This document shows, one piece after another, positions 5,457 through 47,751 of a stretch of 64,000 nucleotides of DNA. Positions within the stretch are counted from its first letter, which is position 1; every line of letters begins with the position of its first letter. This stretch comes from Alphaproteobacteria bacterium (GTDB taxonomy: Bacteria > Pseudomonadota > Alphaproteobacteria > JACZXZ01), in assembly GCA_052143835.1 (NCBI GenBank), contig JBKQRV010000067.1, positions 1,461 to 65,460 of the forward strand, read 5' to 3'. A model generated the notes under the pieces. That model saw only the letters and a program-made list of their open reading frames with translations. It did no database searches and had not been told where the DNA came from. A program made the translations under genes and the position numbers.

Positions 5457-5494
5457 GGTCGCGATTCGGAAGCTTGTCTCACCCCGAGATTATC

Positions 5495-5584
5495 GTCATT
5501 GCGAGCGCAGCGAAGCAATCCATGATGCATGGTGCGAAACCCTATCTGGATTGCTTCGTTGCCCTTCGGGCGCCTCGCAATGAC
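5495..5584. repeat. Family C inverted-repeat element (GTCATTGCGAG...CTCGCAATGAC), copy C1
   Basis: 90-bp element with terminal inverted repeats and inner GAAGCAATCC/GGATTGCTTC arms. About 90% identical to the reverse complement of 33496-33585. Confidence 0.85.
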
Positions 5585-5636
5585 ACGTGTTCACCTGATG
5601 TGGTGAGTTTCAGAACCAGGATACTGGGACGCTCTC

Positions 5637-12853: not shown

Positions 12854-12905
12854 TTGACCATATCACTCAAAGGGAGCAATCTGGTTTGTGCACATGTGCA
12901 CAAAC
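12854..12905 (+). promoter_or_regulatory. Candidate promoter (TTGACC-17-CAATCT) followed by a perfect 22-bp palindrome, putative operator of the TA operon
   Basis: TTGACC 12854-12859 and CAATCT 12877-12882. GTTTGTGCACATGTGCACAAAC 12884-12905 equals its own reverse complement. Confidence 0.45.
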
Positions 12906-12923
12906 TATGATGGGAGCCCAGCC

Positions 12924-13358
12924 GTGCCCTTCCTCTCCTTCCGCGTGGCGGCTGCGACCCGTGACCGAGTCAGGCTGGTAGCGGCCAGGCGGGGCGAGAG
13001 CCTCCAGGCGGTCATGGGCCGAGCCGTCGATCGGCTGCTCGCGGAAGAGGATCGGCGACAGCCGACGTTGAGCCATATCCTGCGCCGGCTGCGCAGCCGC
13101 CAGGCCGAGTTGCGCAAACGCGGCATCGCGAGGCTTTGGGTTTTCGGCTCGATCGCGCGCGGAGATGCGCGACCCGAGAGCGATGTCGATCTCGTCGTCG
13201 AATTCAACCCGGCCGCGAGTGTCTCGCTCACCGCTTTCGCGCGGCTGCGCGAGGATTTGTCCGGCAGCGTTGGCGCCCAGGTCGATCTCGTTGAGTGGCG
13301 CAATCTCAGGCCTCACGTTCGCGCCGCGGCCGAGCGTGACGCCGTGAACGTGTTCTGA
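12924..13358 (+). CDS. MNT-type nucleotidyltransferase antitoxin with N-terminal ribbon-helix-helix-like extension
   Basis: LWVFGSIARGDARPESDVDLVVEF (GSxxRG..DxD). N-terminal LSFRVAAATRDRVRLVAARRGESLQAVMGRAVDRLL looks RHH-like. GTG 12924 has GGGAG 7 nt upstream; track ORF starts at 12888. Confidence 0.8.
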   Translation: MPFLSFRVAAATRDRVRLVAARRGESLQAVMGRAVDRLLAEEDRRQPTLSHILRRLRSRQAELRKRGIARLWVFGSIARGDARPESDVDLVVEFNPAASVSLTAFARLREDLSGSVGAQVDLVEWRNLRPHVRAAAERDAVNVF

Positions 13359-13723
13359 TGCCGGCCCGGGACGCCGAAGACCGCCTCCGCGATATTCTCG
13401 ATGCCGTGCGGGACATTCAGGCCTTCACGCGGGCGATGGCTGAAGAGCGCTTCCTGGCCTTGCCAAATGAGGATAGGCGGACCTATCGCGCGATCAAGAA
13501 CGCGGTCGCCGAGATCGGCGAGGCTGTCAAAGGCCTGCCGGGCGAAATCTGCGCGCGCCATCCGGCGGTGGATTGGCGCGGCCTTGCGGGGTTGCGCGAC
13601 ATCTTGTCCCACCGCTACTTCGTCGTGGACCTGCCGAGACTGTGGCCGGTCCTGAGGGATGAGCTCCCGGTTCTGCGTAAGGCCGTCGAAAGCGAGCTGC
13701 CGCCTGGGACAGAGACGCTGTAA
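13358..13723 (+). CDS. hepT: HepT-like (DUF86) toxin
   Basis: 121 aa; RDILSHRY matches the Rx4HxY motif. Start overlaps the upstream stop (TGATG). Confidence 0.85.
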   Translation: MPARDAEDRLRDILDAVRDIQAFTRAMAEERFLALPNEDRRTYRAIKNAVAEIGEAVKGLPGEICARHPAVDWRGLAGLRDILSHRYFVVDLPRLWPVLRDELPVLRKAVESELPPGTETL

Positions 13724-28789: not shown

Positions 28790-28807
28790 GCTACGCGTAA
28801 GAAGGTC

Positions 28808-28906
28808 ATTACCACGGAGATCACGGAGGACACGGAGGAAGGGAAGATGTCCGCGCGCGAAAGCGCGCAAGAAAGCCTTCTCCGTGCCCTCCGTGTCCTC
28901 CGTGGT
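28808..28906. repeat. Family B long inverted repeat (CACCACGGAG...CTCCGTGGTG), copy B1
   Basis: TACCACGGAGATCACGGAGGACACGGAGGAAGG ... CCTTCTCCGTGCCCTCCGTGTCCTCCGTGGTGA around a GCGCGCGAAAGCGCGC core. Confidence 0.85.
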
Positions 28907-28937
28907 GAAACTTCTTCTGCTTGAGTCGCAACGCCTC

Positions 28938-30425: not shown

Positions 30426-31277
30426 TTAGCCTATCCTGGCGGCTTTGAACAGGCGCTTGGGTGCCCGCAATTCGTCCTGCGCCTCGACGAGGGCGAGCTC
30501 TCTGCTTCGCCTCCGCGCCGTCCTCGTCATCACCGCATGGAGTGCGGAGACGGCATGCTCGAGGGCCAAACGCGCGCTCCGCCGCTTGAGGTAATGGCCG
30601 AGAAAAAGCGCAGCAAAGCAGTCGCCGGCCCCATGTGCCTGCGAGCGTACGGCGGGGCATTCGACAACCCAGGCCGCCTTGGCCTCGACCGCCAGCGTTG
30701 CGACGAGAGCTCGCCCGCCTCTCCCGCCGCCGAGGCCTTTCACCACGATCAGACGAGGGCCGCGGGCAAGCAGGCCGCGCGCGGCGGCAAGGGCCGTGGC
30801 GATGCCGTCGATCTCGCGGCCGGCAAGCCAGCCGAGCTCGAAGGCGTTCGGCAAGAGCATGTCGGCGCGCGCGATGGCGCGGTCGCGGAAGAACTCCGGG
30901 ATGCCGGGGCGCACATAGAGGCCCTTGGCGCTGTCGCCCATGACCGGATCGCAGGCGAAAATTGCCTTCGCGTTCCCCACCTTCACGCGCGCGACGGCGC
31001 TCAAGAGGCTGGTACCGAGGGCGGCGTCGCCGAGATAGCCGCTCAAGACCGCAGCGCAGTGCTGGAAGGCCCCGCACTCGGCGAGCCCGTCGAGCAGCGC
31101 CGCGATTTCCGCGGGGGCCGCGACACTGCCGTGCCAGCGGCCGTAGCCTGGATGGTGGGCGAGCCGCACGGTGTCGATCGGCCACACCTCATGGCCGAGG
31201 CGCTCGAGTGCGAGCCGCGCCGCGCTGTTGCCGACGTGGCCGAAGACGACCGAGGACTGGATGGAGAGCACGTTCAT
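30426..31277 (-). CDS. pdxY: Pyridoxal/pyridoxamine kinase
   Basis: MNVLSIQSSVVFGHVGNSAA, CDPVMGD, GAGDCFAALFLGHYL. Only the 3' 283 codons of track ORF 30426..32438 look real. Confidence 0.9.
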   Translation of the reverse strand: MNVLSIQSSVVFGHVGNSAARLALERLGHEVWPIDTVRLAHHPGYGRWHGSVAAPAEIAALLDGLAECGAFQHCAAVLSGYLGDAALGTSLLSAVARVKVGNAKAIFACDPVMGDSAKGLYVRPGIPEFFRDRAIARADMLLPNAFELGWLAGREIDGIATALAAARGLLARGPRLIVVKGLGGGRGGRALVATLAVEAKAAWVVECPAVRSQAHGAGDCFAALFLGHYLKRRSARLALEHAVSALHAVMTRTARRRSRELALVEAQDELRAPKRLFKAARIG

Positions 31278-31436
31278 AGCGGACGCCGGTCGAGGGGAGT
31301 GCTTTTGCGCCCGAGCTTGCCACGCCGGCGCACGCGCGCGCCAGCTTCTTGCAACAAAGTATCGATCCTTGTTAGGGTCGCGCGAGGCGCCGAGGCAGCG
31401 GCGCACGATCACCGCACGTGTCGAGAGAGATGGAGC

Positions 31437-32321
31437 ATGAGCCAGAGTGCTAAGCCCCGGCGCAGCGTGCTGTACATGCCGGGCTCGAACGCGCGCGCGC
31501 TCGAGAAGGCGCGCACGCTGGCCGCGGACGCGCTCATCCTCGACCTCGAGGACGCGGTCGCCCCCGACGCCAAGGCCTCGGCGCGCGCCGGGATTGCCGC
31601 CGCCCTCGCGGCCGGCGGCTATGGCGGGCGTGAGCTCATCGTGCGCGTGAACGCACTCGATACGCCCTGGGGCTCGGACGACGTCGCCATGGTCGCGCGC
31701 AGCCCCGCCCACGCCATCCTCCTGCCCAAGGTCGAGCGCAGGGTCCAGGTCCAGGAGGTCGAGAAGCGCCTCGAGGCCGCGGGTGCCGCGAGCTCGCTCG
31801 CGATCTGGTGCATGATGGAGACCCCGCTCGGCATGCTCCATGCCGAGGAGATCGCTTCGTCCTCCGCCCGCGTCGGCTGCCTGGTCATGGGCACCTCCGA
31901 TCTCGCCAAGGACCTCCATGCCGCGCACACGCGCGAGCGCCTGCCCCTGCTGACGAGCCTCGGCCTCTGCCTGCTCGCCGCGCGTGCCTTCCGCTTGGCC
32001 ATCCTCGACGGCGTGCATCTCGATCTCGCCGACGACGAGGGCTTTGCCGCGAGCTGCCGGCAGGGGAAGGAGCTCGGCTTCGACGGCAAGACCCTCATCC
32101 ATCCGAAGACGATCGCCGCGGCGAACGAGATCTTCGCGCCCTCGCCCGCGGAGGTCGCCTGGTCGCGCCGCATCATCGCGGCTCACGGCGAGGCGGGGAA
32201 GGGCGTGGTCGTGGTCGACGGCAAGCTGATCGAGAGCCTGCACGTCGAGAGTGCTGCGCGGCTCGTCGCCTTGGCGGACGCGATCCAGGCGCTCGAGGCG
32301 TCCGCCGCGGCCGCGGATTAG
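31437..32321 (+). CDS. HpcH/HpaI aldolase / CitE-like CoA-ester lyase (malyl-/citramalyl-CoA lyase family)
   Basis: RRSVLYMPGSNARALEKARTLAADALILDLEDAV, LIVRVNALDTPWG, KTLIHPKTI. Confidence 0.85.
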   Translation: MSQSAKPRRSVLYMPGSNARALEKARTLAADALILDLEDAVAPDAKASARAGIAAALAAGGYGGRELIVRVNALDTPWGSDDVAMVARSPAHAILLPKVERRVQVQEVEKRLEAAGAASSLAIWCMMETPLGMLHAEEIASSSARVGCLVMGTSDLAKDLHAAHTRERLPLLTSLGLCLLAARAFRLAILDGVHLDLADDEGFAASCRQGKELGFDGKTLIHPKTIAAANEIFAPSPAEVAWSRRIIAAHGEAGKGVVVVDGKLIESLHVESAARLVALADAIQALEASAAAAD

Positions 32322-32332
32322 GGAGCCGCGCC

Positions 32333-33394
32333 ATGGCGGGGGCGAAGACCGCTGCCGGGAATTTCTTCGAGGACTTCCGCCTCGGCCAGGAGCTCGCGCA
32401 CGCGACGCCGCGCACGGTAGGTGCCGGCGATGCGGCACTCTATCTGGCGCTTACCGGCACGCGCTTCGCGCTCAACTCCTCGGACGAGTTCGCGCGTGGT
32501 TGCGGGCTGCCGTGCGCGCCGCTCGACGATCTGCTCGCCTTTCACATCATCTTCGGCAAGACCGTGCCCGACATCTCGCTTAACGCGATCGCCAATCTCG
32601 GCTATGCCGACTGCCGCTTCCTCGCCCCCGTCTATCCAGGCGACACGCTCCAGGCGAAGAGCCGCGTGATCGGGCTCAGGGAGAACGCCAACCGGCAAAG
32701 CGGCATCGTCTATGTGCGCTCGACGGGGACGAATGAGAGCGGCGAGACCGTGCTCGAGTACGTGCGCTGGGTCATGGTGCGCAAGCGCGACGAGGCGGCG
32801 CCGGCGCCGGCTGCCTCGGTGCCCACACTTGCCCGCGCGGTGCCGGCGACGGCACTCGCGCTGCCGGCGGGCTTAGCACTCGAGCGCTACGACTTCGCGC
32901 TCGCCGGCTCGCCCTTCGCCTGGGAGGACTATGCGCCGGGCGAGCGCATCGATCACGTCGACGGCGTCACCATCGAGGAGGCCGAGCACATGATGGCGAC
33001 GCGGCTCTACCAGAACACGGCGCGGGTCCACTTCAACCAGCAGGCCCAAGCGGCCGACCGCTTCGGCCGCCGCCTCGTCTACGGCGGACACATCATGAGC
33101 CTCGCGCGCGCGGCGAGCTTCAACGGCCTCGCCAACGCGGTCAAGATCGCCGCCATCAACGGCGGCCGTCACCTTGCCCCGAGCTTCGCCGGCGACACGA
33201 TCTATGCCTGGAGCGAGGTGCTCGAGCGCTGGGAGATCGCAGGCCGGCGCGATCTCGGCGCGCTGCGCCTGCGCACGCTCGCGACCAAGGAGCGGCGCGC
33301 CGGCGATTTTCCCGACAAGGACGCGCAAGGGAAGTTCGACCCCGCGGTCGTGCTCGAGCTCGACTACACGGTGCTGCTCCCGCGGCGCGGCTGA
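32333..33394 (+). CDS. MaoC-family (double hot-dog) enoyl-CoA hydratase/dehydratase
   Basis: 353 aa; FEDFRLGQEL, NLGYADCRFLAPVYPGDTL, second hot-dog YGGHIMSLA..GGRHLAPSFAGDT. Confidence 0.85.
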   Translation: MAGAKTAAGNFFEDFRLGQELAHATPRTVGAGDAALYLALTGTRFALNSSDEFARGCGLPCAPLDDLLAFHIIFGKTVPDISLNAIANLGYADCRFLAPVYPGDTLQAKSRVIGLRENANRQSGIVYVRSTGTNESGETVLEYVRWVMVRKRDEAAPAPAASVPTLARAVPATALALPAGLALERYDFALAGSPFAWEDYAPGERIDHVDGVTIEEAEHMMATRLYQNTARVHFNQQAQAADRFGRRLVYGGHIMSLARAASFNGLANAVKIAAINGGRHLAPSFAGDTIYAWSEVLERWEIAGRRDLGALRLRTLATKERRAGDFPDKDAQGKFDPAVVLELDYTVLLPRRG

Positions 33395-33408
33395 CGGCCG
33401 CAAAGGCT

Positions 33409-33620
33409 TTCACCACGGAGAACACGGAGGTCACGGAGAAGAGGAGGGAGACTTCGTGTCCTCGTTCTTAAATTCACGACATCAGGAAAACACTCGTCAT
33501 TGCGAGGCGCCCGAAGGGCGCCGAAGCAATCCATATGGGGTTTCGCACCAGACGCGCTGGATTGCTTCGCTGCGCTCGCAATGACGGCTACCTGCAGGCG
33601 AGACAGACCCGTGGTGAAAC
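33409..33620. repeat. Family B element (copy B2) split by a nested Family C insertion
   Basis: Left terminus TCACCACGGAGAACACGGAGGTCACGGAG (33409-33437) and right terminus CCCGTGGTGAAACC (33607-33620) match the B1/B3 termini. C2 sits between them. Confidence 0.7.
33496..33585. repeat. Family C inverted-repeat element, copy C2 (inverted relative to C1)
   Basis: GTCATTGCGAGGCGCCCGAAGGGCGCCGAAGCAATCC...GGATTGCTTCGCTGCGCTCGCAATGAC. Confidence 0.85.
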
Positions 33621-33645
33621 CTTCTGCAGCCGCTCGCCTCGGCTT

Positions 33646-33678
33646 CAAAACGAAACGCCGCGGAGGCGCATCCGCGGC
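33646..33678 (-). terminator. Candidate rho-independent terminator (minus strand)
   Basis: Minus strand reads GCCGCGGA-tgcgcc-TCCGCGGC followed by GTTTCGTTTTG. Confidence 0.45.
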
Positions 33679-33696
33679 GCTCGGAGGCGAAGCCCT

Positions 33697-33768
33697 AAAA
33701 TAAAGTGAGGCGTCAGGAGCGTAAGCGAGAACCCACGCTACGTGTCCGGGCGGGACACTCCTGACGCC
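33697..33768 (-). terminator. Y-shaped hairpin element copy T1 plus T-tract, candidate 3' end of module 1
   Basis: 11-bp outer stem GGCGTCAGGAG/CTCCTGACGCC enclosing two inner hairpins (one is TGTCC-gggcg-GGACA). On the minus strand it is followed by TCACTTTATTTT. Confidence 0.4.
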
Positions 33769-34310
33769 TCTGGAGCCGAAGCCCCATGGCTCGTGAGAGC
33801 GACCCGGCTTCCGGCCGTCTCCCTCCTCGGCAACGCCCCCGTGAAGGGACGCCCCGCCGGAGCGAGGAGCCGTACCCCCCTCGCGGGGGATCGCCAGCGA
33901 AAAGCCCACTCGTCGGCCGCGTCCGGTTCCTCCTGTCGCGTCCCTCCTCCCTTGCGGGAGAATTTTCGCGCCTAGGACCGCAAGGCCCCGAAAGGTCTCG
34001 CGGCCCCCCGTGACGGCCCCGATGGCCCGAAGGCCGCCGACGCCGATCCGGGAAAAGAGCCGGCCAACCGGGAGTTTGACCTCCCGCCTGGGGGCGGTGC
34101 TCCGAAGAGTTCCGTCCTCAAGGCCGGGTAGTGCCGCCCCGAAGGGCCGCATCGCCCCGAAGCTTTCGTCCTCTTGCCCGCCGCCCGAAGTCCCGAAGGG
34201 CCTCGGATGGTTCCGCTTGGGCTTACTCGCTTCGACACTCTCTCGTGCCGTCTAAAGCCTATCTCTTTCAAAGGCACGTTCAATGAAAAAGCGGCTTTCC
34301 TTTGAAAATA
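33769..34310 (-). ncRNA. Candidate large structured RNA, module 1 body (unclassified; transcription not shown)
   Basis: No credible ORF. On the minus strand there are 7 CUUCGG in 423 nt and GNRA-capped stems at 33947-33960 (GCAA) and 33876-33889 (GCGA). Further stems at 34024-34035, 34136-34147, 34069-34086 and 34266-34307. Confidence 0.3.
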
Positions 34311-34333
34311 TCTGTGCGTAGATTTGTCAATTG

Positions 34334-34376
34334 CACACAAGGCTTCCACAAATTCTCCACATGTTTATCCACAAAG
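34334..34376. promoter_or_regulatory. Conserved head block P1 with perfect DnaA-box 9-mer TTATCCACA (34365-34373) and one-mismatch box TTCTCCACA (34353-34361)
   Basis: Ungapped alignment to 35219-35259 gives 30/41 identities, including a 12/12 block TTATCCACAAAG. Confidence 0.5.
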
Positions 34377-34424
34377 ACTATTCAGGCAGTCGAGGCCTCA
34401 AAATTCAACGTCTTGTTATTCAGG

Positions 34425-34640
34425 CACTTACGCTGCGCGTCCGCGCGGGCGAGACACTCCGACGCCCCCAAATCTTTCGCCTGAAATGAAGGCGGCGCCG
34501 GGAGCGTAAGCTGCACTTACGCTGCGTGTCCGGGCGGGAGGGTCCCGATGCCCCAAATCTTTCGCCTAATAAGAAGGCGGCGTCGGGAGCGTAAGCTGCA
34601 CTTACGCTGCGTGTCCGGGCGGGACACTCCCGACGCCGCC
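34425..34640. repeat. Tandem array (period 85-89 bp, ~2.5 units) of the Y-shaped hairpin element (T2c partial, T2b, T2a)
   Basis: CACTTACGCTGCG starts at 34425, 34514 and 34599. T2a 34579-34637 has intact arms GGCGTCGGGAG/CTCCCGACGCC; T2b 34494-34552 is degenerate. Confidence 0.85.
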
Positions 34641-35160
34641 GGGGCCTGGGCGGACCCCGTGCTGAAAGGCCTGCGGCCGCACCGCCGTCGACGCGCGCGC
34701 GCCTCAGGGAGAAGCGCGAGCAGCGGCGAAGCTTGAGGGCCGGGCCTGCCCTGGGCGGAGCAGAACCCGAGCCCGCGGCACGTCACCGTCACGCGAACCG
34801 CTCCCGACGGGAACTCGCGCTCGCGCGCGCGCCCCGTCCAAGCGAAGGAAACCGAGACTCCCGGGCGAGGAGGCGGCCCCCCTAGCCGCCCGCCCCCCGG
34901 CATGCCCTTGGGGCGCCGTGGGGCCGGCGTCAGATCCTCGTTCCGGCACGTCGGCACCCTCTTTTGCCTGGGACCGAGCCTTGCGGATCGGCCCACGCGA
35001 GAGGCTGCCCCGCTTTCTTGCGAAAGCGTCGCCGCGTCCGCTGCGGAACCGCGGTCCCACCCCCGAGGCCGCACGAAGGCGGTTCGCTCAAGGTTCTAAG
35101 ATCGGGCTCCGCTGCGGTGACCTCAGCACCGCCAAGTATAGTGCAGAGCGCGTTGTCGGG
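34641..35160 (-). ncRNA. Candidate structured RNA, module 2 body (unclassified; weaker case than module 1)
   Basis: No credible ORF. Minus-strand CGCUUUC-GCAA-GAAAGCG hairpin (35011-35028) and (GC)n runs at 34690-34703 and 34817-34834. No sequence similarity to module 1 body seen by eye. Confidence 0.2.
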
Positions 35161-35195
35161 CGGCAACGAGAAAAACAAATAATGGTCAAAAATCT

Positions 35196-35259
35196 TGTGA
35201 ATAAATCCAGACTTTCCTCACAGGTCCGCAACAAGTTTTCCACTGTCTTATCCACAAAG
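35196..35259. promoter_or_regulatory. Conserved head block P2 with perfect DnaA-box TTATCCACA (35248-35256), inverted one-mismatch box (35196-35204) and adjacent ~74% A+T stretch
   Basis: TGTGAATAA at 35196-35204 is the complement of TTATTCACA. GAAAAACAAATAATGGTCAAAAATCTTGTGAATAAATCC (35170-35208) is the most AT-rich run in this region. Confidence 0.5.
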
Positions 35260-35371
35260 GGCTCAGTTTCGGCAGGCGCGCCGCAGCCAAGGCCCTTGCT
35301 TGTCTTGGATTTGTGCGGGGGAACTTCGGTTGGCGCGTGGCCGCCATGCGCTTTTGCTGCGGCGCGGAAGA

Positions 35372-35400
35372 TTGACTTAGGCGGTGCGGCGGCCTAGAAA
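35372..35400 (+). promoter_or_regulatory. Candidate sigma70-type promoter for sdhCDAB
   Basis: TTGACT (35372-35377), 17-nt spacer, TAGAAA (35395-35400), ~93 nt upstream of the sdhC ATG. Motif match only. Confidence 0.3.
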
Positions 35401-35492
35401 GCTTTCGGACGATCTAGCGGGCGTCCCCTCGCCCGCACGCGACCGGGCGCATCCGTGCTCGGCTCGCCGACCATGCCCATGTAGGCGCGCTC

Positions 35493-35891
35493 ATGACCGC
35501 TCGGAACAGGCCGCTCTCCCCTCATTTGCAGATCTACCGGCCGCAGCTGACCTCGCTGCTCTCGATCACCCATAGGGCGACCGGCATCGCCCTCGTGGCG
35601 GGCGCCTTCCTCCTCGTCTGGTGGATCGCCGCCCTCGTGCGCGGCCCGGCCTCCTTTGCGCTCTTCCAGCACTTCATCGCCTCGTTCCTCGGCCGGCTCC
35701 TTCTCTTCGGCTGGACGTGGGCGCTTTTCTACCATTTGGCCAACGGCATTCGCCATCTCTCGTGGGACGCCGGCTGGGGCTACGAGCTCGAGAGCACCTA
35801 CGCGAGCGGCTGGTTCGTGGTCGCCGCCTCGACGGTCTTGACGCTCGTCGCCTGGTCGATCGGCTACGTCATGCTGGGAGGGCACGGATGA
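35493..35891 (+). CDS. sdhC: Succinate dehydrogenase cytochrome b556 subunit
   Basis: RPLSPHLQIYRPQLTSLLSITHRATG. Confidence 0.95.
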   Translation: MTARNRPLSPHLQIYRPQLTSLLSITHRATGIALVAGAFLLVWWIAALVRGPASFALFQHFIASFLGRLLLFGWTWALFYHLANGIRHLSWDAGWGYELESTYASGWFVVAASTVLTLVAWSIGYVMLGGHG

Positions 35892-36277
35892 GCGGCATGC
35901 GCACCCCGCTCGGCCGCGTGCGCGGCCTCGGCTCCGCCAAGGGAGGAGTGGAGCACTGGTGGATGCAGCGCCTGACCGCGGTGGCGCTCGTGCCGCTCAC
36001 GCTGTGGTTCGTCTATTCGATGGTGGCGCTCACCGGCGCCGAGCATGCGAGCGTGGTCAACTGGTTCGCGCGGTCGCGCAACGCCGTGCTGATGATCCTC
36101 CTCGTCATCGCCACCTTCCACCATGGGCAGCTCGGCATCCAGGTGGTGATCGACGACTACGTCCATAGCGAGAGAACGAAGCTGGCGGCCATCATCATCG
36201 TCAAGTTCGCAGCGGTGCTGCTCGCGGCCGGCAGCATCTTCGGGATCGTGCGGATCGCCTTCGGAGTGATCGGCTGA
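35888..36277 (+). CDS. sdhD: Succinate dehydrogenase hydrophobic membrane anchor
   Basis: [41 protein letters not shown] overlap with sdhC. Confidence 0.9.
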
Positions 36278-38078: not shown

Positions 38079-38254
38079 ATCACCACGGAGACACGGAGGT
38101 CACGGAGATCGCGGAGAAGCAAGCTTTCAGCGCAGAGGTCGTAGAGGATGCGCAGAGGCCGCAAGGTATAAATTTTCTCTCCGCGTCCTCTGCGCATCCT
38201 CTGCGACCTCTGCGCTAAGCCTTTCCTCTGTTCTTCTCCGTGCCTCCGTGGTGA
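38079..38254. repeat. Family B long inverted repeat, copy B3 (~176-bp near-perfect palindrome) between sdhA and sdhB
   Basis: GATCACCACGGAGACACGGAGGTCACGGAG...CAGCGCAGAGGTCGTAGAGGATGCGCAGAGG is mirrored by CCTCTGCGCATCCTCTGCGACCTCTGCGCT...CTCCGTGCCTCCGTGGTGAATC. Confidence 0.9.
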
Positions 38255-43609: not shown

Positions 43610-44734
43610 ATGACCAGCACCTCAAGCCTGCGGGGACTGCTCGGCGCCTATCGCGCTTTGCGCGAGGCGGGCCAACTCAACCCCGATCCCGCCCAGCTCC
43701 TTGCCGCCGAGAAGCTGCAGGCGCTCGCGAACGCGCTGCAGCGCTACCGCCCGGCAGGGAACGGCAACGGCTGGAAGGCCCGGCTCGGGCGATTGAGCCG
43801 CAACAATGCAACGCCGCAGGGCCTCTACCTGTGCGGCGACGCGGGGCGGGGGAAATCCATGCTGATGGATCTTTTCTTCGCGCACGCGGCGACCCCCCGC
43901 AAGCGGCGCGTCCACTTCCACGCCTTCATGCTCGAGGTGCATGAGCGCATCCATCGCCTGCGCCAGAGGGGGAAGGGCGAGACCATCGCCCCTCTGGCGC
44001 AAGCGCTCTCGGAGCAGGCCTGGCTCCTCTGCTTCGACGAGTTCCACGTCACCGACATCGCGGACGCCATGATTCTCGGGCGCCTCTTCGAGGCGCTCTT
44101 CGCAGCCGGCGTCGTGGTCGTCGCCACCTCGAACTTCGCGCCCGACGAGCTCTACAAGGGAGGCCTCAAGCGCGAGCTCTTCCTGCCTTTCATCGCACTC
44201 ATCAAGGAGAAACTCGACGTGCTCCATCTTGGAGGCGGGGTCGATTGGCGCCGGCAGCGCCTGCGCGGCATGCGCACCTACCTGACCCCGCTCGGTGCCA
44301 CGGCGAGTGCTGCCTTGAGCCAGTCCTTCAAGGCCTTGAGCGACGGCGCCGAGGCGGGCCCCGACACCCTCATCGTGCAAGGCCGCACCCTCACCCTTGC
44401 GCGCGCGGCCAACGGCGTGCTCCACACGAGCTTCGCCGAGCTTTGCGAGGCGCCGCTCGGGCCCGCCGATTACCTCGCGATCGCCCAGCATTATCGCGCG
44501 GTCGTGCTCGACGGCATTCCGCGTCTCGGGCCGGAGCGGCGCAACGAGGCGCGCCGGTTCGTCACCCTCATCGACGAGCTCTACGAGCACAGGGTCCATC
44601 TCGTCTCAGCGGCCGCGGCCGAGCCCGATCTCATCTGCCCGGCGGGCGACGTGGCCGAGCTCTTTCGCCGCGCCGCCTCGCGGCTCATCGAAATGCAGAC
44701 CGCCGAATACATCGACCTCGAGCATCTGACCTGA
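43610..44734 (+). CDS. zapE: Cell division protein ZapE (AFG1-like ATPase)
   Basis: GLYLCGDAGRGKSMLMDLFF Walker A; LLCFDEFHVTDIADAM. Confidence 0.9.
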   Translation: MTSTSSLRGLLGAYRALREAGQLNPDPAQLLAAEKLQALANALQRYRPAGNGNGWKARLGRLSRNNATPQGLYLCGDAGRGKSMLMDLFFAHAATPRKRRVHFHAFMLEVHERIHRLRQRGKGETIAPLAQALSEQAWLLCFDEFHVTDIADAMILGRLFEALFAAGVVVVATSNFAPDELYKGGLKRELFLPFIALIKEKLDVLHLGGGVDWRRQRLRGMRTYLTPLGATASAALSQSFKALSDGAEAGPDTLIVQGRTLTLARAANGVLHTSFAELCEAPLGPADYLAIAQHYRAVVLDGIPRLGPERRNEARRFVTLIDELYEHRVHLVSAAAAEPDLICPAGDVAELFRRAASRLIEMQTAEYIDLEHLT

Positions 44735-44742
44735 GGTATCCC

Positions 44743-45753
44743 ATGCAGGCCTATCACCTTCTCGAGCCCTATGGTTTCGCCGCCCTGCGACCGGTCGAGC
44801 TCGCCCGTCCCGAGCCGGGGCCGGGCGAGGTGCTGGTGCGCGTGCGCGCGGTCTCGCTCAATTATCGCGACCTCCTCATCGTCAAGGGCGACTACAGCCG
44901 CCGCCTCAAGCTGCCGCTCGTTCCGGGCTCGGACGGCGCCGGCGAGGTGGCGGCGGTCGGACCTGGGGTGAGCCGCTTCGCTCCCGGCGACCGCGTGGTC
45001 GCCGCCTTCTTCCAACGTTGGCTTGCGGGGCCCATCGGGCCTGAGGCGCGGGCGTCGGCACTCGGTGCCGGCTATCGCGGCATGCTCGCCGAATATGTGG
45101 TGCTCAGCGAGGCGGGACTCCTTGCTGTGCCTGAGCATCTCTCCTTCGCCGAGGCGGCCTGCCTTCCTTGCGCTGGCGTCACCGCCTGGCACGCGCTCGA
45201 GGCGGACGAGCCGGCCGCGAGTAGGGAGACCGTGGTCACGCAAGGCACGGGCGGGGTCTCGATCTTCGCGCTTCAGCTCGCCAAGCTGAGGGGCTGCCGC
45301 GTGATCGCGACCTCGAGCCGCGACGAGCGCTGCCAGCACCTCGAGACCCTCGGCGCCGATGCGACGATCAACTACCGCACCACGCCCGAATGGGACCAGC
45401 GCGTGCTCGAGCTCACCCAGGGTCTGGGTGCGGACCGAATCGTCGAGGTCGGCGGCGCCGGCACCCTTCAGCGCTCGCTCCGCGCGCTCAGGCCTGGCGG
45501 CCTCATTGCCGTGATCGGCGTGCTGTCGGGCAAGGGCGCTTCCTTCGATCCCATGCCCATCATCATGAAGAGCGCGCGGCTTTACGGCATCAGCGTCGGC
45601 TCGAAGGAGATGTTCGAGGCGATGAACCGCACCATCGTCGCGCACGCCCTCCATCCGGTAATCGACCGCACCTTCCCCTTCGCCGAGCTCCACGCCGCAC
45701 TCCGCCACATGGAGGCGGGCGCGCATTTCGGGAAGATTTGCGTAGAGGTTTGA
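44743..45753 (+). CDS. Zinc-type/medium-chain NAD(P)-dependent alcohol dehydrogenase or quinone oxidoreductase
   Basis: GEVLVRVRAVSLNYRDL, PGSDGAGEV, TQGTGGVSIFALQLAK. Confidence 0.85.
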   Translation: MQAYHLLEPYGFAALRPVELARPEPGPGEVLVRVRAVSLNYRDLLIVKGDYSRRLKLPLVPGSDGAGEVAAVGPGVSRFAPGDRVVAAFFQRWLAGPIGPEARASALGAGYRGMLAEYVVLSEAGLLAVPEHLSFAEAACLPCAGVTAWHALEADEPAASRETVVTQGTGGVSIFALQLAKLRGCRVIATSSRDERCQHLETLGADATINYRTTPEWDQRVLELTQGLGADRIVEVGGAGTLQRSLRALRPGGLIAVIGVLSGKGASFDPMPIIMKSARLYGISVGSKEMFEAMNRTIVAHALHPVIDRTFPFAELHAALRHMEAGAHFGKICVEV

Positions 45754-45842
45754 GGCGCTGTCTCTGCCGTTTGAGTTTGAGGCAACCATTGCCTATTTCG
45801 ATCAGTGAGGCGAAGCTGCCACGCTGGCGTTTTGCGCGCCGA

Positions 45843-46304
45843 ATGGCTGCGTCTCAATCGGAGGGTTCGAGCGTGGCTACCGATGCGCCGAATATAACAG
45901 CGGTTCGCGCCGACAAAGCTCGACGTCTGGTCGTCACCTGGAAGGGTGGGGCTGAAAGCGTCGTCGATCTATCGAAGCACTTGGCGCACTACGCGATATT
46001 TGCCCCACTCCGCCGAAGCGACAAGCTATTCCGCGCGCTCGAGGTTGGCGAGTGGGGCTGGTGCGTCCATTGGTCGCCCGATCTGGAGATCTCCTCGGAC
46101 GCACTCTGGCGGCTCGCACTGGAACAGGGAGCTGCCTGGTTGCGCATGTGGCGCAAGGCGCGCCGGCTGACCCAGAGCGAGGCGGCAAGGGCCTTGGGCG
46201 TGAGCCCGCGCATGTGGCGCTATTATGAGGCAGGCTCGCACCTCCTGCCCAAGACCGTGCGACTTGCCTGCATCGGCTTCGACGCCCAGGCGCGCGCGGC
46301 CTGA
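45843..46304 (+). CDS. DUF2442-like domain fused to a C-terminal XRE-type HTH
   Basis: ITAVRADKARRLVVTWKGGAESVVDL..EVGEWGWCVHWSPDLEISSDALW, then RKARRLTQSEAARALGVSPRMWRYYEAG. ATG 45843 within track ORF 45390..46304. Confidence 0.65.
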   Translation: MAASQSEGSSVATDAPNITAVRADKARRLVVTWKGGAESVVDLSKHLAHYAIFAPLRRSDKLFRALEVGEWGWCVHWSPDLEISSDALWRLALEQGAAWLRMWRKARRLTQSEAARALGVSPRMWRYYEAGSHLLPKTVRLACIGFDAQARAA

Positions 46305-46571: not shown

Positions 46572-47408
46572 TTATGGCGTCCTCGTTGTCGCTAGAGCAG
46601 CCTGCGTCTCGGGAGGCGGCGATTCCGCGGCGAGCGTATCCATCACGAGAAGTCCGGCGTCGATGTTCGCGAAGCTGGATTGCCCGGGGAATCTGCCCGC
46701 ATCGACGACCGCTTCACGGCGCTGCAGATAGAGGCTGCGCAAAGAGGCATAGTAGTCGACCGAGGTGCGCTCGATCGAATCGAGGGTGTCGAGATATTCG
46801 GCGCGCTGGTCCACGGCGGAGGTTGCCGACCTGCTGTAACCGGCTACGGTGATGGCGACTCCCCCGCCCGCGAAGAAGAACGGATTGGCGACGAAGCCAA
46901 TGACCAATCCGACCGCGTCCCTCAGGTCAGAGGGGCCGAAGAAGGGCAATTCGACGAAGGGCCCCTCGGGGATGCCCCATACCCCGAAAGTCTGACCGAA
47001 GTCGGCGTCGTGGTGCTTGAGGCCCCAATTCGACGCCACATCCATGATGCCAACCGCACCCGCCGTCGTATTCACCACGAAGCGGCACACCGCCGCCCAA
47101 GCGCGGTCGAAATTGCCCTGCAGGACGTCGTTGAGGCCGACGACGGGCTCATTCAGGTTGCTGAGCACGTTGTGGATACCGTGGCGAACGTCCTCGGGCA
47201 CCTCGTCGCGGTAGCTCTCGGCCACCGGCTTCATCACGTTGCGGTCGGCGAACTGATTGGCATCGAAGATGTCCCGGTTCACCGATTCGACGGGATCGTC
47301 GACCTCGCCCGTTTGAAGCTTGGCCCGGTCCGCGTTGGGACCTTCCGAGCATGCGGACAGGCACAAAAGCGCCGCCGCAACCAGCGTTATCTGCGCGGTT
47401 GCCTTCAT
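46572..47408 (-). CDS. mlaA: MlaA/VacJ-family outer-membrane lipoprotein
   Basis: Lipobox LLCLSAC after MKATAQITLVAAA; NRDIFDANQFADRNVMKPVA, NTTAGAVGIMDVA, GPSDLRD. Confidence 0.88.
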   Translation of the reverse strand: MKATAQITLVAAALLCLSACSEGPNADRAKLQTGEVDDPVESVNRDIFDANQFADRNVMKPVAESYRDEVPEDVRHGIHNVLSNLNEPVVGLNDVLQGNFDRAWAAVCRFVVNTTAGAVGIMDVASNWGLKHHDADFGQTFGVWGIPEGPFVELPFFGPSDLRDAVGLVIGFVANPFFFAGGGVAITVAGYSRSATSAVDQRAEYLDTLDSIERTSVDYYASLRSLYLQRREAVVDAGRFPGQSSFANIDAGLLVMDTLAAESPPPETQAALATTRTP

Positions 47409-47751
47409 GCCATGCGAATATTCGGTGGCCGTGATGCCCTCGTTGGACCTTAATGCCAGGGCAGCGGCGAGCTTCTTAAGAACACTTCCCATCATTCGCC
47501 CCCCGAAGGTGTGGGATGACGCCGGAAATTAGACCATGCAATTGTAAAAATGCTGTTAAAGTTATGGTCTTAGGAGGCCCAACAAGATCTGCGGCCCTTT
47601 TCTAGAGATGCCCTCCGAACTTTGGGTGGTGTCCTAATCCGAACGCCGCCCCGCCCAGCTCAAAAATCCGCTTACCACTCTATTTCGAAGGTTTGTCCAC
47701 CAATTCCTCCAGCAAGGTAACGTCGATCGTTGTGTGTCAGGAGGAAAGGGG

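Follow-up and report, generated by a model that had tools for sequence, protein, structure and literature searches.

The window analysed here, a 64,000-nucleotide stretch of contig JBKQRV010000067.1 from an Alphaproteobacteria bacterium of lineage JACZXZ01 (assembly GCA_052143835.1), contains at positions 33395-35492 an interval with two tandem modules of what appears, on sequence grounds, to be a new kind of large bacterial non-coding RNA (ncRNA) gene with an oriC-like DnaA-box promoter. The interval lies between a mesaconyl-CoA hydratase gene, which ends at 33394, and sdhC, which starts at 35493; its neighbours are mcl and mesaconyl-CoA hydratase genes, sdhCDAB, and genes for an FMN-binding protein and TauD. 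A first-pass annotation of this DNA had singled out the interval as the largest non-coding stretch of the window, which it is, because the other large apparent gaps contain genes (MNT/HepT, DUF2442-HTH and MlaA).

Long open reading frames (ORFs) are present on both strands of the interval (up to 262 aa), all of which had been judged non-coding at first pass, and closer inspection agrees. The window has a GC content of ~68%, and its real genes have a GC content at third codon positions (GC3) near 0.9; third-position GC periodicity (maximum minus minimum), which is 0.35-0.6 in the flanking genes, collapses to 0.0-0.25 inside 33395-35492. No ORF of the interval matched Pfam at E≤0.1, and an alignment of M1-type sequences (A1, described below) contains many indels of 1-2 nt, not multiples of three; coding is excluded because of these frequent indels and the lack of Pfam matches. 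Protein searches and frame analysis likewise gave no sign of a decayed protein gene.

The interval is organized as two head/body/tail units on the minus strand, positioned as the first-pass annotation had placed them (Table 1). That annotation had pictured the whole interval as built from the two modules, which is correct for the modules themselves and incorrect for the leftmost part (33395-33645), a filler resembling repetitive extragenic palindromic (REP) sequences and miniature inverted-repeat transposable elements (MITEs). Further copies of this filler are found in the window at 28802-28910, 38080-38119, and 5475-5624, and BLAST showed no conservation of it at that site in two relatives (L007 and L008). 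The bodies and heads, in contrast to such repeats, are unique within the window.

Table 1. Features of the interval, including the sdhC leader, listed in the direction of minus-strand transcription
Feature	Position	Strand	Basis
sdhC promoter/leader region, divergent from M2	35257..35492	+	conserved through L008
Head P2, DnaA-box array	35196..35256	-	sequence matches, spacing and consensus across lineages
Putative M2 promoter	35138..35194	-	read from sequence and spacing across modules
Predicted M2 RNA	34563..35131	-	alignment A2, RNAalifold, covariation, fold z-score
About 1.5 extra, partly degenerate tandem tail copies (85-nt period)	34424..34562	-	Tandem Repeats Finder, repeat families
Head P1, DnaA-box array	34312..34373	-	sequence matches, spacing and consensus across lineages
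Putative M1 promoter	34256..34311	-	sequence, spacing, conserved columns
Predicted M1 RNA	33697..34252	-	alignment A1, covariation, G·U bias, fold z-score
Second simple hairpin and T-tract	33646..33678	-	terminator scan, alignment, BLAST
Repeat filler, outside the modules	33403..33605	.	CACGGAGAA 9-mer repeat (33403-33445) and 150-nt palindromic MITE/REP-like element (33456-33605)

Structure and strand of the RNA bodies

The predicted M1 RNA is about 555 nt long (69% GC) and consists of a 5′ hairpin, a closing helix, and a body of about 20 helices; seven CUUCGG tetraloops are seen on the minus strand, the plus strand having none. The body is followed by a 3′ hairpin (GGGGCUUCGGCUCC, 33785-33772) and a three-way-junction terminator (33770-33707), then by ACUUUAUUUU. 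The predicted M2 RNA is about 566 nt long (73% GC), with a multi-branched body, a 3′ hairpin at 34658-34641, a three-way-junction terminator at 34640-34576, and a U-rich tail. Both predicted transcripts contain more G than C, and the length of ~560 nt seen here rises to ~680-750 nt in other lineages. The RNA of most lineages begins with a small GNRA hairpin (CACGCGAAAGCGUCG and variants), which is missing from M2-type RNAs.

Two alignments carry the structural evidence: A1, with 11 M1-type sequences, and A2, with 8 M2 sequences. The RNAalifold consensus of A1 has 184 pairs, and 95.2% of the cells pair; 57 of these pairs have double (compensatory) changes, compared with 22.7±3.3 in column shuffles (none of 500 reaches the observed value) and only 9-22 in slid controls, in which the 3′ partners were shifted by 1-3 columns. 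Read on the minus strand, A1 contains 290 G·U cells and 27 A·C cells; therefore, the paired molecule has the minus-strand sequence, which points to RNA. For A2, RNAalifold gives 187-199 pairs with 97.4% of cells paired, and 19 pairs have double changes, compared with 11.4±2.1 in shuffles (0 of 500) and 1-6 in slid controls. Fold z-scores of single sequences favour the minus over the plus strand in all four RNAs scored: M1 (−5.6 vs. −2.9), M2 (−4.6 vs. −2.0), and the distant members L066 (−8.2 vs. −4.5) and L073 (−7.7 vs. −1.2). Compensatory changes together with a G·U excess of 10:1 are explained only by selection on RNA.

At the sequence level the two bodies are unrelated, as the first-pass annotation had claimed: body-only profile hidden Markov models (HMMs) give no match between M1 and M2 at E≤10, and a covariance model built from the central domain of M1 matches all M1-type copies (E 1e-10 to 1e-22), matches L009 marginally, and never matches M2. 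Homology of the bodies had been considered on the basis of full-length nhmmer matches; it was withdrawn, the similarity being confined to heads and tails. BLAST clustering sorts the modules into an M1 type with 18 members and an M2 type with 9, the distant lineages being singletons. The consensus structures of M1 and M2 nevertheless have nearly the same abstract shape, in which a large domain, closed by a helix between the 5′ end and the region before the 3′ hairpin, encloses a three-hairpin cluster and a two-hairpin cluster and is followed by the 3′ hairpin and the three-way junction.

Conservation of the 3′ end extends to distant lineages. This end is made up of a hairpin of the form GGAGCC-loop-GGCUCC, an 11-bp outer stem (GAGGCGUCAGG/CCUGACGCCUC) enclosing two hairpins whose sequences vary while their stems persist, and a U-rich tail. 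The outer stem has compensatory changes across 20 diverse sequences; it is the only part recovered by RNAalifold from the diverse 3′ elements, the inner hairpins being misaligned by MAFFT. Behind M2 this element is repeated: Tandem Repeats Finder reports 2.5 copies with a period of 85 and 85% matches at 34424-34637, and the same hairpin type recurs after the M1 body at 33707-33770, both in accord with the earlier description of the tails. Two to three tail copies occupy the equivalent position in L008 and L091, and the extra copies probably serve as back-up terminators that would insulate the M1 promoter from M2 read-through. The second hairpin and T-tract reported downstream of M1 was also recovered, as the only minus-strand site (33655-33669) that a terminator scan gives within 33395-33700. 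It is conserved in L006 and L008, and BLAST conservation in L008 begins at 33647; it may be read as a back-up intrinsic terminator for M1 that insulates the tandem units.

Conservation and distribution of the modules

Contigs with an identical SdhC from several metagenomes are at least 99.8% identical to the window. More distant relatives were collected by scanning species-representative genomes with SdhC, and 33 further loci came from a metagenome scan with a tail-derived pattern. Synteny upstream of sdhC, which the first-pass annotation had left to be checked by BLAST, is found in related uncultured Alphaproteobacteria: the alignable length in L006-L008 is 0.85-1.9 kb at 76-94% identity (92-94% in L006 and L007; 76% over 1871 nt in L008, with an SdhC identity of 81%), and L010 aligns over M1 only, at 71%. 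Profile searches of genome and metagenome contigs yielded 38 full-length modules, of which 28 remain after redundancy is removed at 97%. Wherever sdhC is on the contig, the module is oriented for transcription divergent from it. Two loci carry the module without sdhC, L086 between genes for an ABC ATPase and an SDR protein (a profile match in which the strict head pattern is not matched on the RNA strand) and L101 between genes for PFK and cytochrome P460 (with a DnaA-box-like head whose box 1 has two mismatches); because of these, the module is regarded as an autonomous gene that is usually, not always, beside sdhC. In many relatives the gap upstream of sdhC is short and contains no module.

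The two-module arrangement is present in L006-L008, L091, L105, L109, L117, and L118, in two of which (L109, 4424-6093, and L091, 1066-2724) 2-3 tandem tail copies lie between the modules. Since the SdhC proteins of these lineages are 69-97% identical to that of the window, the duplication is an old one. A single M1-type module directly beside sdhC in L010 and L092 suggests loss of the M2 copy; in the inferred order of events, the duplication was probably followed by loss in some lineages.

DnaA-box heads and putative promoters

The two heads, described as homologous at first pass, are 72% identical over 46 nt (34331-34376 and 35214-35259) and both contain TTATCCACAAAG. The perfect DnaA-box consensus TTATNCACA occurs three times in the window, each time within one of the two heads, against 0.09 occurrences expected, in keeping with the DnaA-box block that had been assigned to P2. 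In P2, a high-affinity box (TGTGGATAA, 35256-35248) is followed by three degenerate direct boxes with 11-12-nt phasing and, at a distance of exactly 43 nt from box 1, by an inverted consensus box (TTATTCACA, 35204-35196). In P1, box 1 (TGTGGATAA, 34373-34365) is followed by TGTGGAGAA, TGTGGAAGC, and TGTGTGCAA, and by an inverted box (CTACGCACAG, 34321-34312) that has 2 mismatches to the consensus. The same pattern, four direct boxes and one inverted box, emerges as the consensus of 30 unique heads. Its geometry on the RNA strand is invariant across lineages: TGTGGATAA and three degenerate boxes spaced 12, 11, and 11 nt from start to start, then, exactly 43 nt on from box 1, the inverted box TTAYNCACAR, and after it exactly 27 A/T-rich nt.

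The P2-type head block also occurs in distant Alphaproteobacteria, 200-390 nt upstream of sdhC in many distant taxa; this type of head is ancient and widespread, not local. Perfect TTATCCACA boxes were seen 200-270 nt upstream of sdhC in three further loci, L020 (Tistlia consotensis, at about 848), L015, and L035, the last with two in tandem. Cultured T. consotensis has the perfect box, but no inverted box, RNA tail, or RNA module was detected there; in L015 and L035 the family profile matches the head and the start of the body, and the contigs are too short upstream of sdhC for a whole module.

It is fairly probable that the heads are DnaA-binding arrays that control the promoters of the RNAs; their consensus, phasing, combination of strong and weak boxes, and invariant spacing are hard to explain otherwise. 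A CRP-like site (TGTGA-N6-TCACA) was considered and rejected on spacing, and inspection by eye revealed no consistent CtrA (TTAA-N7-TTAA) or GANTC sites.

The fixed A/T-rich spacer leads from each array to a putative promoter. For M2, the 27-nt spacer (35194-35168) is followed by a −35 element (TTGCCG, 35166-35161), a 17-nt spacer, and a −10 element (CACTAT, 35143-35138), with a predicted start near 35131; for M1, the corresponding elements are the 27-nt spacer (34311-34285), TTGAAC (34283-34278), a 16-nt spacer, and TAGGCT (34261-34256), with a predicted start near 34249. The pattern TTGnnn, 16-18 nt, nAnnnT is kept in 40+ modules. Outside M1 and M2 the −10 hexamer is CACGAT, CAACAT, or TAGCAT, and the first covarying helix lies ~7 nt further on; in M1 this helix begins at the predicted +1. 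The TTG of the −35 element and positions A2 and T6 of the −10 element are conserved columns of A1. Together, heads and TTG/nAnnnT geometry would constitute a σ70-type promoter under a DnaA-oligomerization array.

Interpretation, alternatives, and neighbouring features

The explanation favoured here, with a probability of roughly 0.75, is that the interval comprises two tandem, paralogous, independently transcribed minus-strand genes of an undescribed family of large structured ncRNAs of uncultured Alphaproteobacteria; it is quite likely that M1 and M2 both encode structured RNAs belonging to a new family. The first-pass annotation had preferred two minus-strand transcription units to random spacer, and synteny, covariation, G·U bias, promoter-like geometry, and terminators all support that preference. 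Neither body had been recognized at first pass as RNase P, tmRNA, SRP, 6S, or a group I/II intron. In agreement with this, cmscan against Rfam 15, whose families include those as well as OLE, GOLLD, ROOL, HEARO, raiA, and the rest, gave no match at E≤1 in 33000-36000 or in 15 related loci and none at the gathering threshold in the whole window; ARAGORN detected neither tRNA nor tmRNA genes.

Several points weigh against this explanation. The covariation of M2 rests on 8 sequences in two clades and is weaker than that of M1, although in the same direction. The bodies of M1, M2, and the distant members are not demonstrably homologous, so that membership of one family is suggested by heads, termini, and similar abstract shapes. 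DnaA binding is read from sequence only; the −10 hexamers TAGGCT and CACTAT are weak, and because a scan with a strict σ70 consensus finds no promoter site, the promoters are best called putative. All carriers found are uncultured, and no cultured host was found. The downstream role proposed below for the RNA is a guess.

In the mechanism proposed under the two-gene explanation, one consensus box would nucleate DnaA on three weak phased boxes, as in an oriC-like array, with the inverted consensus box 43 nt away; ATP-DnaA would oligomerize on this array, fixed 27 nt upstream of a σ70-type promoter, and set the rate of RNA transcription, probably also affecting the divergent sdhCDAB promoter where this is adjacent. 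The level of the RNA, if it is expressed in this way, would reflect the potential for replication initiation. The RNA itself would work in trans, most likely by serving as a scaffold for protein binding; its functional handle would be the conserved 5′/3′ core, made of closing helix, 3′ hairpin, and three-way junction, and its body, which evolves fast under structural constraint, would be a lineage-specific domain. The usual adjacency of sdhCDAB suggests, and does not show, a link of initiator status to tricarboxylic acid (TCA) cycle and respiratory metabolism.

A more far-reaching possibility, held to be doubtful, is that the RNA works as a riboregulator directly on replication initiation, or on the coupling of initiation to respiration, or else primes or opens a cryptic DnaA-dependent origin. 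In the former case an ATP-DnaA filament would gate RNA synthesis, and the RNA would feed back on DnaA, the origin, or TCA and respiratory genes. Either form, if true, would constitute a new class of cell-cycle-coupled large ncRNA in Alphaproteobacteria.

It is unlikely that the DNA itself is the functional unit, with the heads serving as DnaA-titrating or DnaA-recycling clusters of the datA, DARS, or DnaA-box cluster type, or as sdhCDAB operators, and with body transcripts that are incidental or only modulate DnaA occupancy. Such a role would fit the resemblance of the box array to DnaA-oligomerization regions, the position of the P2-type head upstream of sdhC in many distant taxa, and the perfect box of Tistlia without a detectable RNA module. 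It leaves unexplained the compensatory changes and the G·U bias of the bodies. The duplicated head P1, moreover, has no adjacent sdhC, and the fixed 27 nt to the −35 element ties the array to the RNA promoter; at L101 a DnaA-box-like head stays with the RNA gene away from sdhC, whereas at L086 the strict head is unmatched.

Considerably less likely is an element that resembles an origin of replication, whether oriC itself or a secondary origin primed by transcription, with a primer or R-loop of the ColE1 RNA II type. ColE1 RNA II and other origin-associated primer transcripts are structured transcripts of ~550 nt near initiator-related DNA signals, a description that the present RNAs share, and the strong box, phased weak boxes, inverted box, and adjacent A/T-rich 27-mer of the head, along with the excess of G over C in the transcripts, would be in keeping with an origin. 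The element differs from RNA II in being chromosomal and tandem, in ending at strong terminators, and in having neither an origin signature nor plasmid homologues, no match having been found in plasmid, phage, or viral-contig collections. GC skew shows no minimum here (the cumulative curve has, near 30 kb, a weak maximum), and there is no switch of gene orientation, genes on both sides being mostly on the plus strand; the neighbours are metabolic, with no ori-linked genes of the hemE/dnaA/parAB type. The A/T-rich stretch is only 27 nt long, and no DnaA-trio repeats are evident. Skew, orientation of the genes, their identity, and the tandem duplication were the grounds on which oriC was set aside.

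Even less credence is given to strain- or lineage-specific repeat debris, in which palindromes of REP, bacterial interspersed mosaic element, or MITE type and remnants of mobile elements would have collected in an intergenic region that tolerates them. Such repeats do make up the leftmost 250 nt, the tail hairpin is tandemly repeated, and short-read contigs break at the tails. Dispersed copies were found only for 33403-33605, however, which lies outside the modules; bodies and heads have none in the window, no transposase, terminal inverted repeats, or matches to mobile-element collections were found, and the modules keep their synteny, with purifying selection on their structure, across taxa with SdhC identities of only 70-80%. 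That the bodies are decayed or unusual protein-coding genes, or genes for small proteins, is barely credible, since the long ORFs on both strands lack the codon-position GC periodicity and Pfam matches of real genes, the alignments are full of 1-2-nt indels, and helix substitutions are compensatory.

Among known RNAs, the two-gene arrangement has parallels in AbcR1/AbcR2 of Rhizobiales and PrrF1/PrrF2 of Pseudomonas, tandem paralogous genes for Hfq-type small RNAs of 100-150 nt with similar sequences. These are likewise RNA genes that share an intergenic region head-to-tail and have separate promoters and terminators (putative in the present case), whereas the RNAs described here are about 560 nt long and alike only at their ends. 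In length (~550-750 nt), number of covariation-supported helices, UUCG/GNRA tetraloops, organization as a stand-alone gene with its own (here putative) promoter and terminator, and discovery by comparative genomics of long GC-rich intergenic regions, the element resembles OLE, GOLLD, ROOL, raiA, and the smtA “Soda Lake” motif, large structured bacterial ncRNAs with functions either unknown or discovered only recently (PMC11109978, PMC9723947, PMC10861870). It differs from them in having no Rfam 15 match, in its taxa (uncultured Alphaproteobacteria), in the conservation of the termini only while the body turns over, and in its putative DnaA-box promoter and tandem paralogy. The heads share the 9-mer TTATNCACA, the 11-12-nt phasing, one strong and several weak boxes, and an intergenic site with the E. 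coli dnaA and nrdAB promoters, datA, and DARS1/2, and with the B. subtilis DnaA-box clusters (PMC11317965, PMC4447404); here, by contrast, the array precedes a large ncRNA gene by a fixed distance, an arrangement of which no example was found in the literature searched. That literature yielded no description of a large RNA associated with DnaA boxes or of an RNA upstream of sdhC in Alphaproteobacteria, and a paper on recent discoveries in GC-rich intergenic regions does not mention the element.

It is seldom that a large structured bacterial RNA is newly found, and several of those known before proved to have unexpected biochemistry; the comparative support for this candidate is unusually strong for a first look. 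Conserved termini around a rapidly changing, structure-constrained body are unusual for bacterial RNAs, and two tandem paralogues offer a natural experiment. An oriC-like array at a fixed distance from a promoter provides a testable handle that would connect the replication initiator, an RNA of ~560 nt, and, in most carriers, the succinate dehydrogenase operon.

Several minor features of the surroundings were recorded. The CACGGAGAA-based repeat, about 30-43 nt long, occurs at 33403-33445, 28802-28844, 28877-28910, and 38080-38119, at several intergenic spots including one between sdhA and sdhB; it resembles a repeat of REP type spread through the genome, and one copy marks the end of metagenome contig L001. 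The 150-nt palindromic element is present at 33456-33605 and, inverted, at 5475-5624 (82% identity; core CATTGCGAG...GAAGCAATCC...GGATTGCTTCG...CTCGCAATG), and a 30-nt piece of it also occurs in L041. A 402-aa ORF at 44581-45789 on the minus strand has no Pfam match. The apparent 1-kb gap that includes 12888-13723 holds, on the plus strand, a toxin-antitoxin pair of nucleotidyltransferase (MNT) and HepT-like RNase; a DUF2442 plus HTH protein is encoded at 45390-46304 (plus strand) and an MlaA lipoprotein at 46572-47495 (minus strand), in a stretch of lower GC content (46-48 kb, GC 0.62). In the sdhC leader, a 22-nt inverted repeat (35277-35298/35345-35366, 82% complementary) lies between head P2 and the sdhC start and could be an sdhC regulatory element. 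On the other side of the interval, genes for a malyl-CoA lyase-type protein (HpcH/HpaI; mcl) and mesaconyl-CoA hydratase (30537-33394) directly adjoin M1 and are convergent with it; genes resembling parts of the ethylmalonyl-CoA pathway or methylaspartate cycle thus adjoin sdhCDAB.

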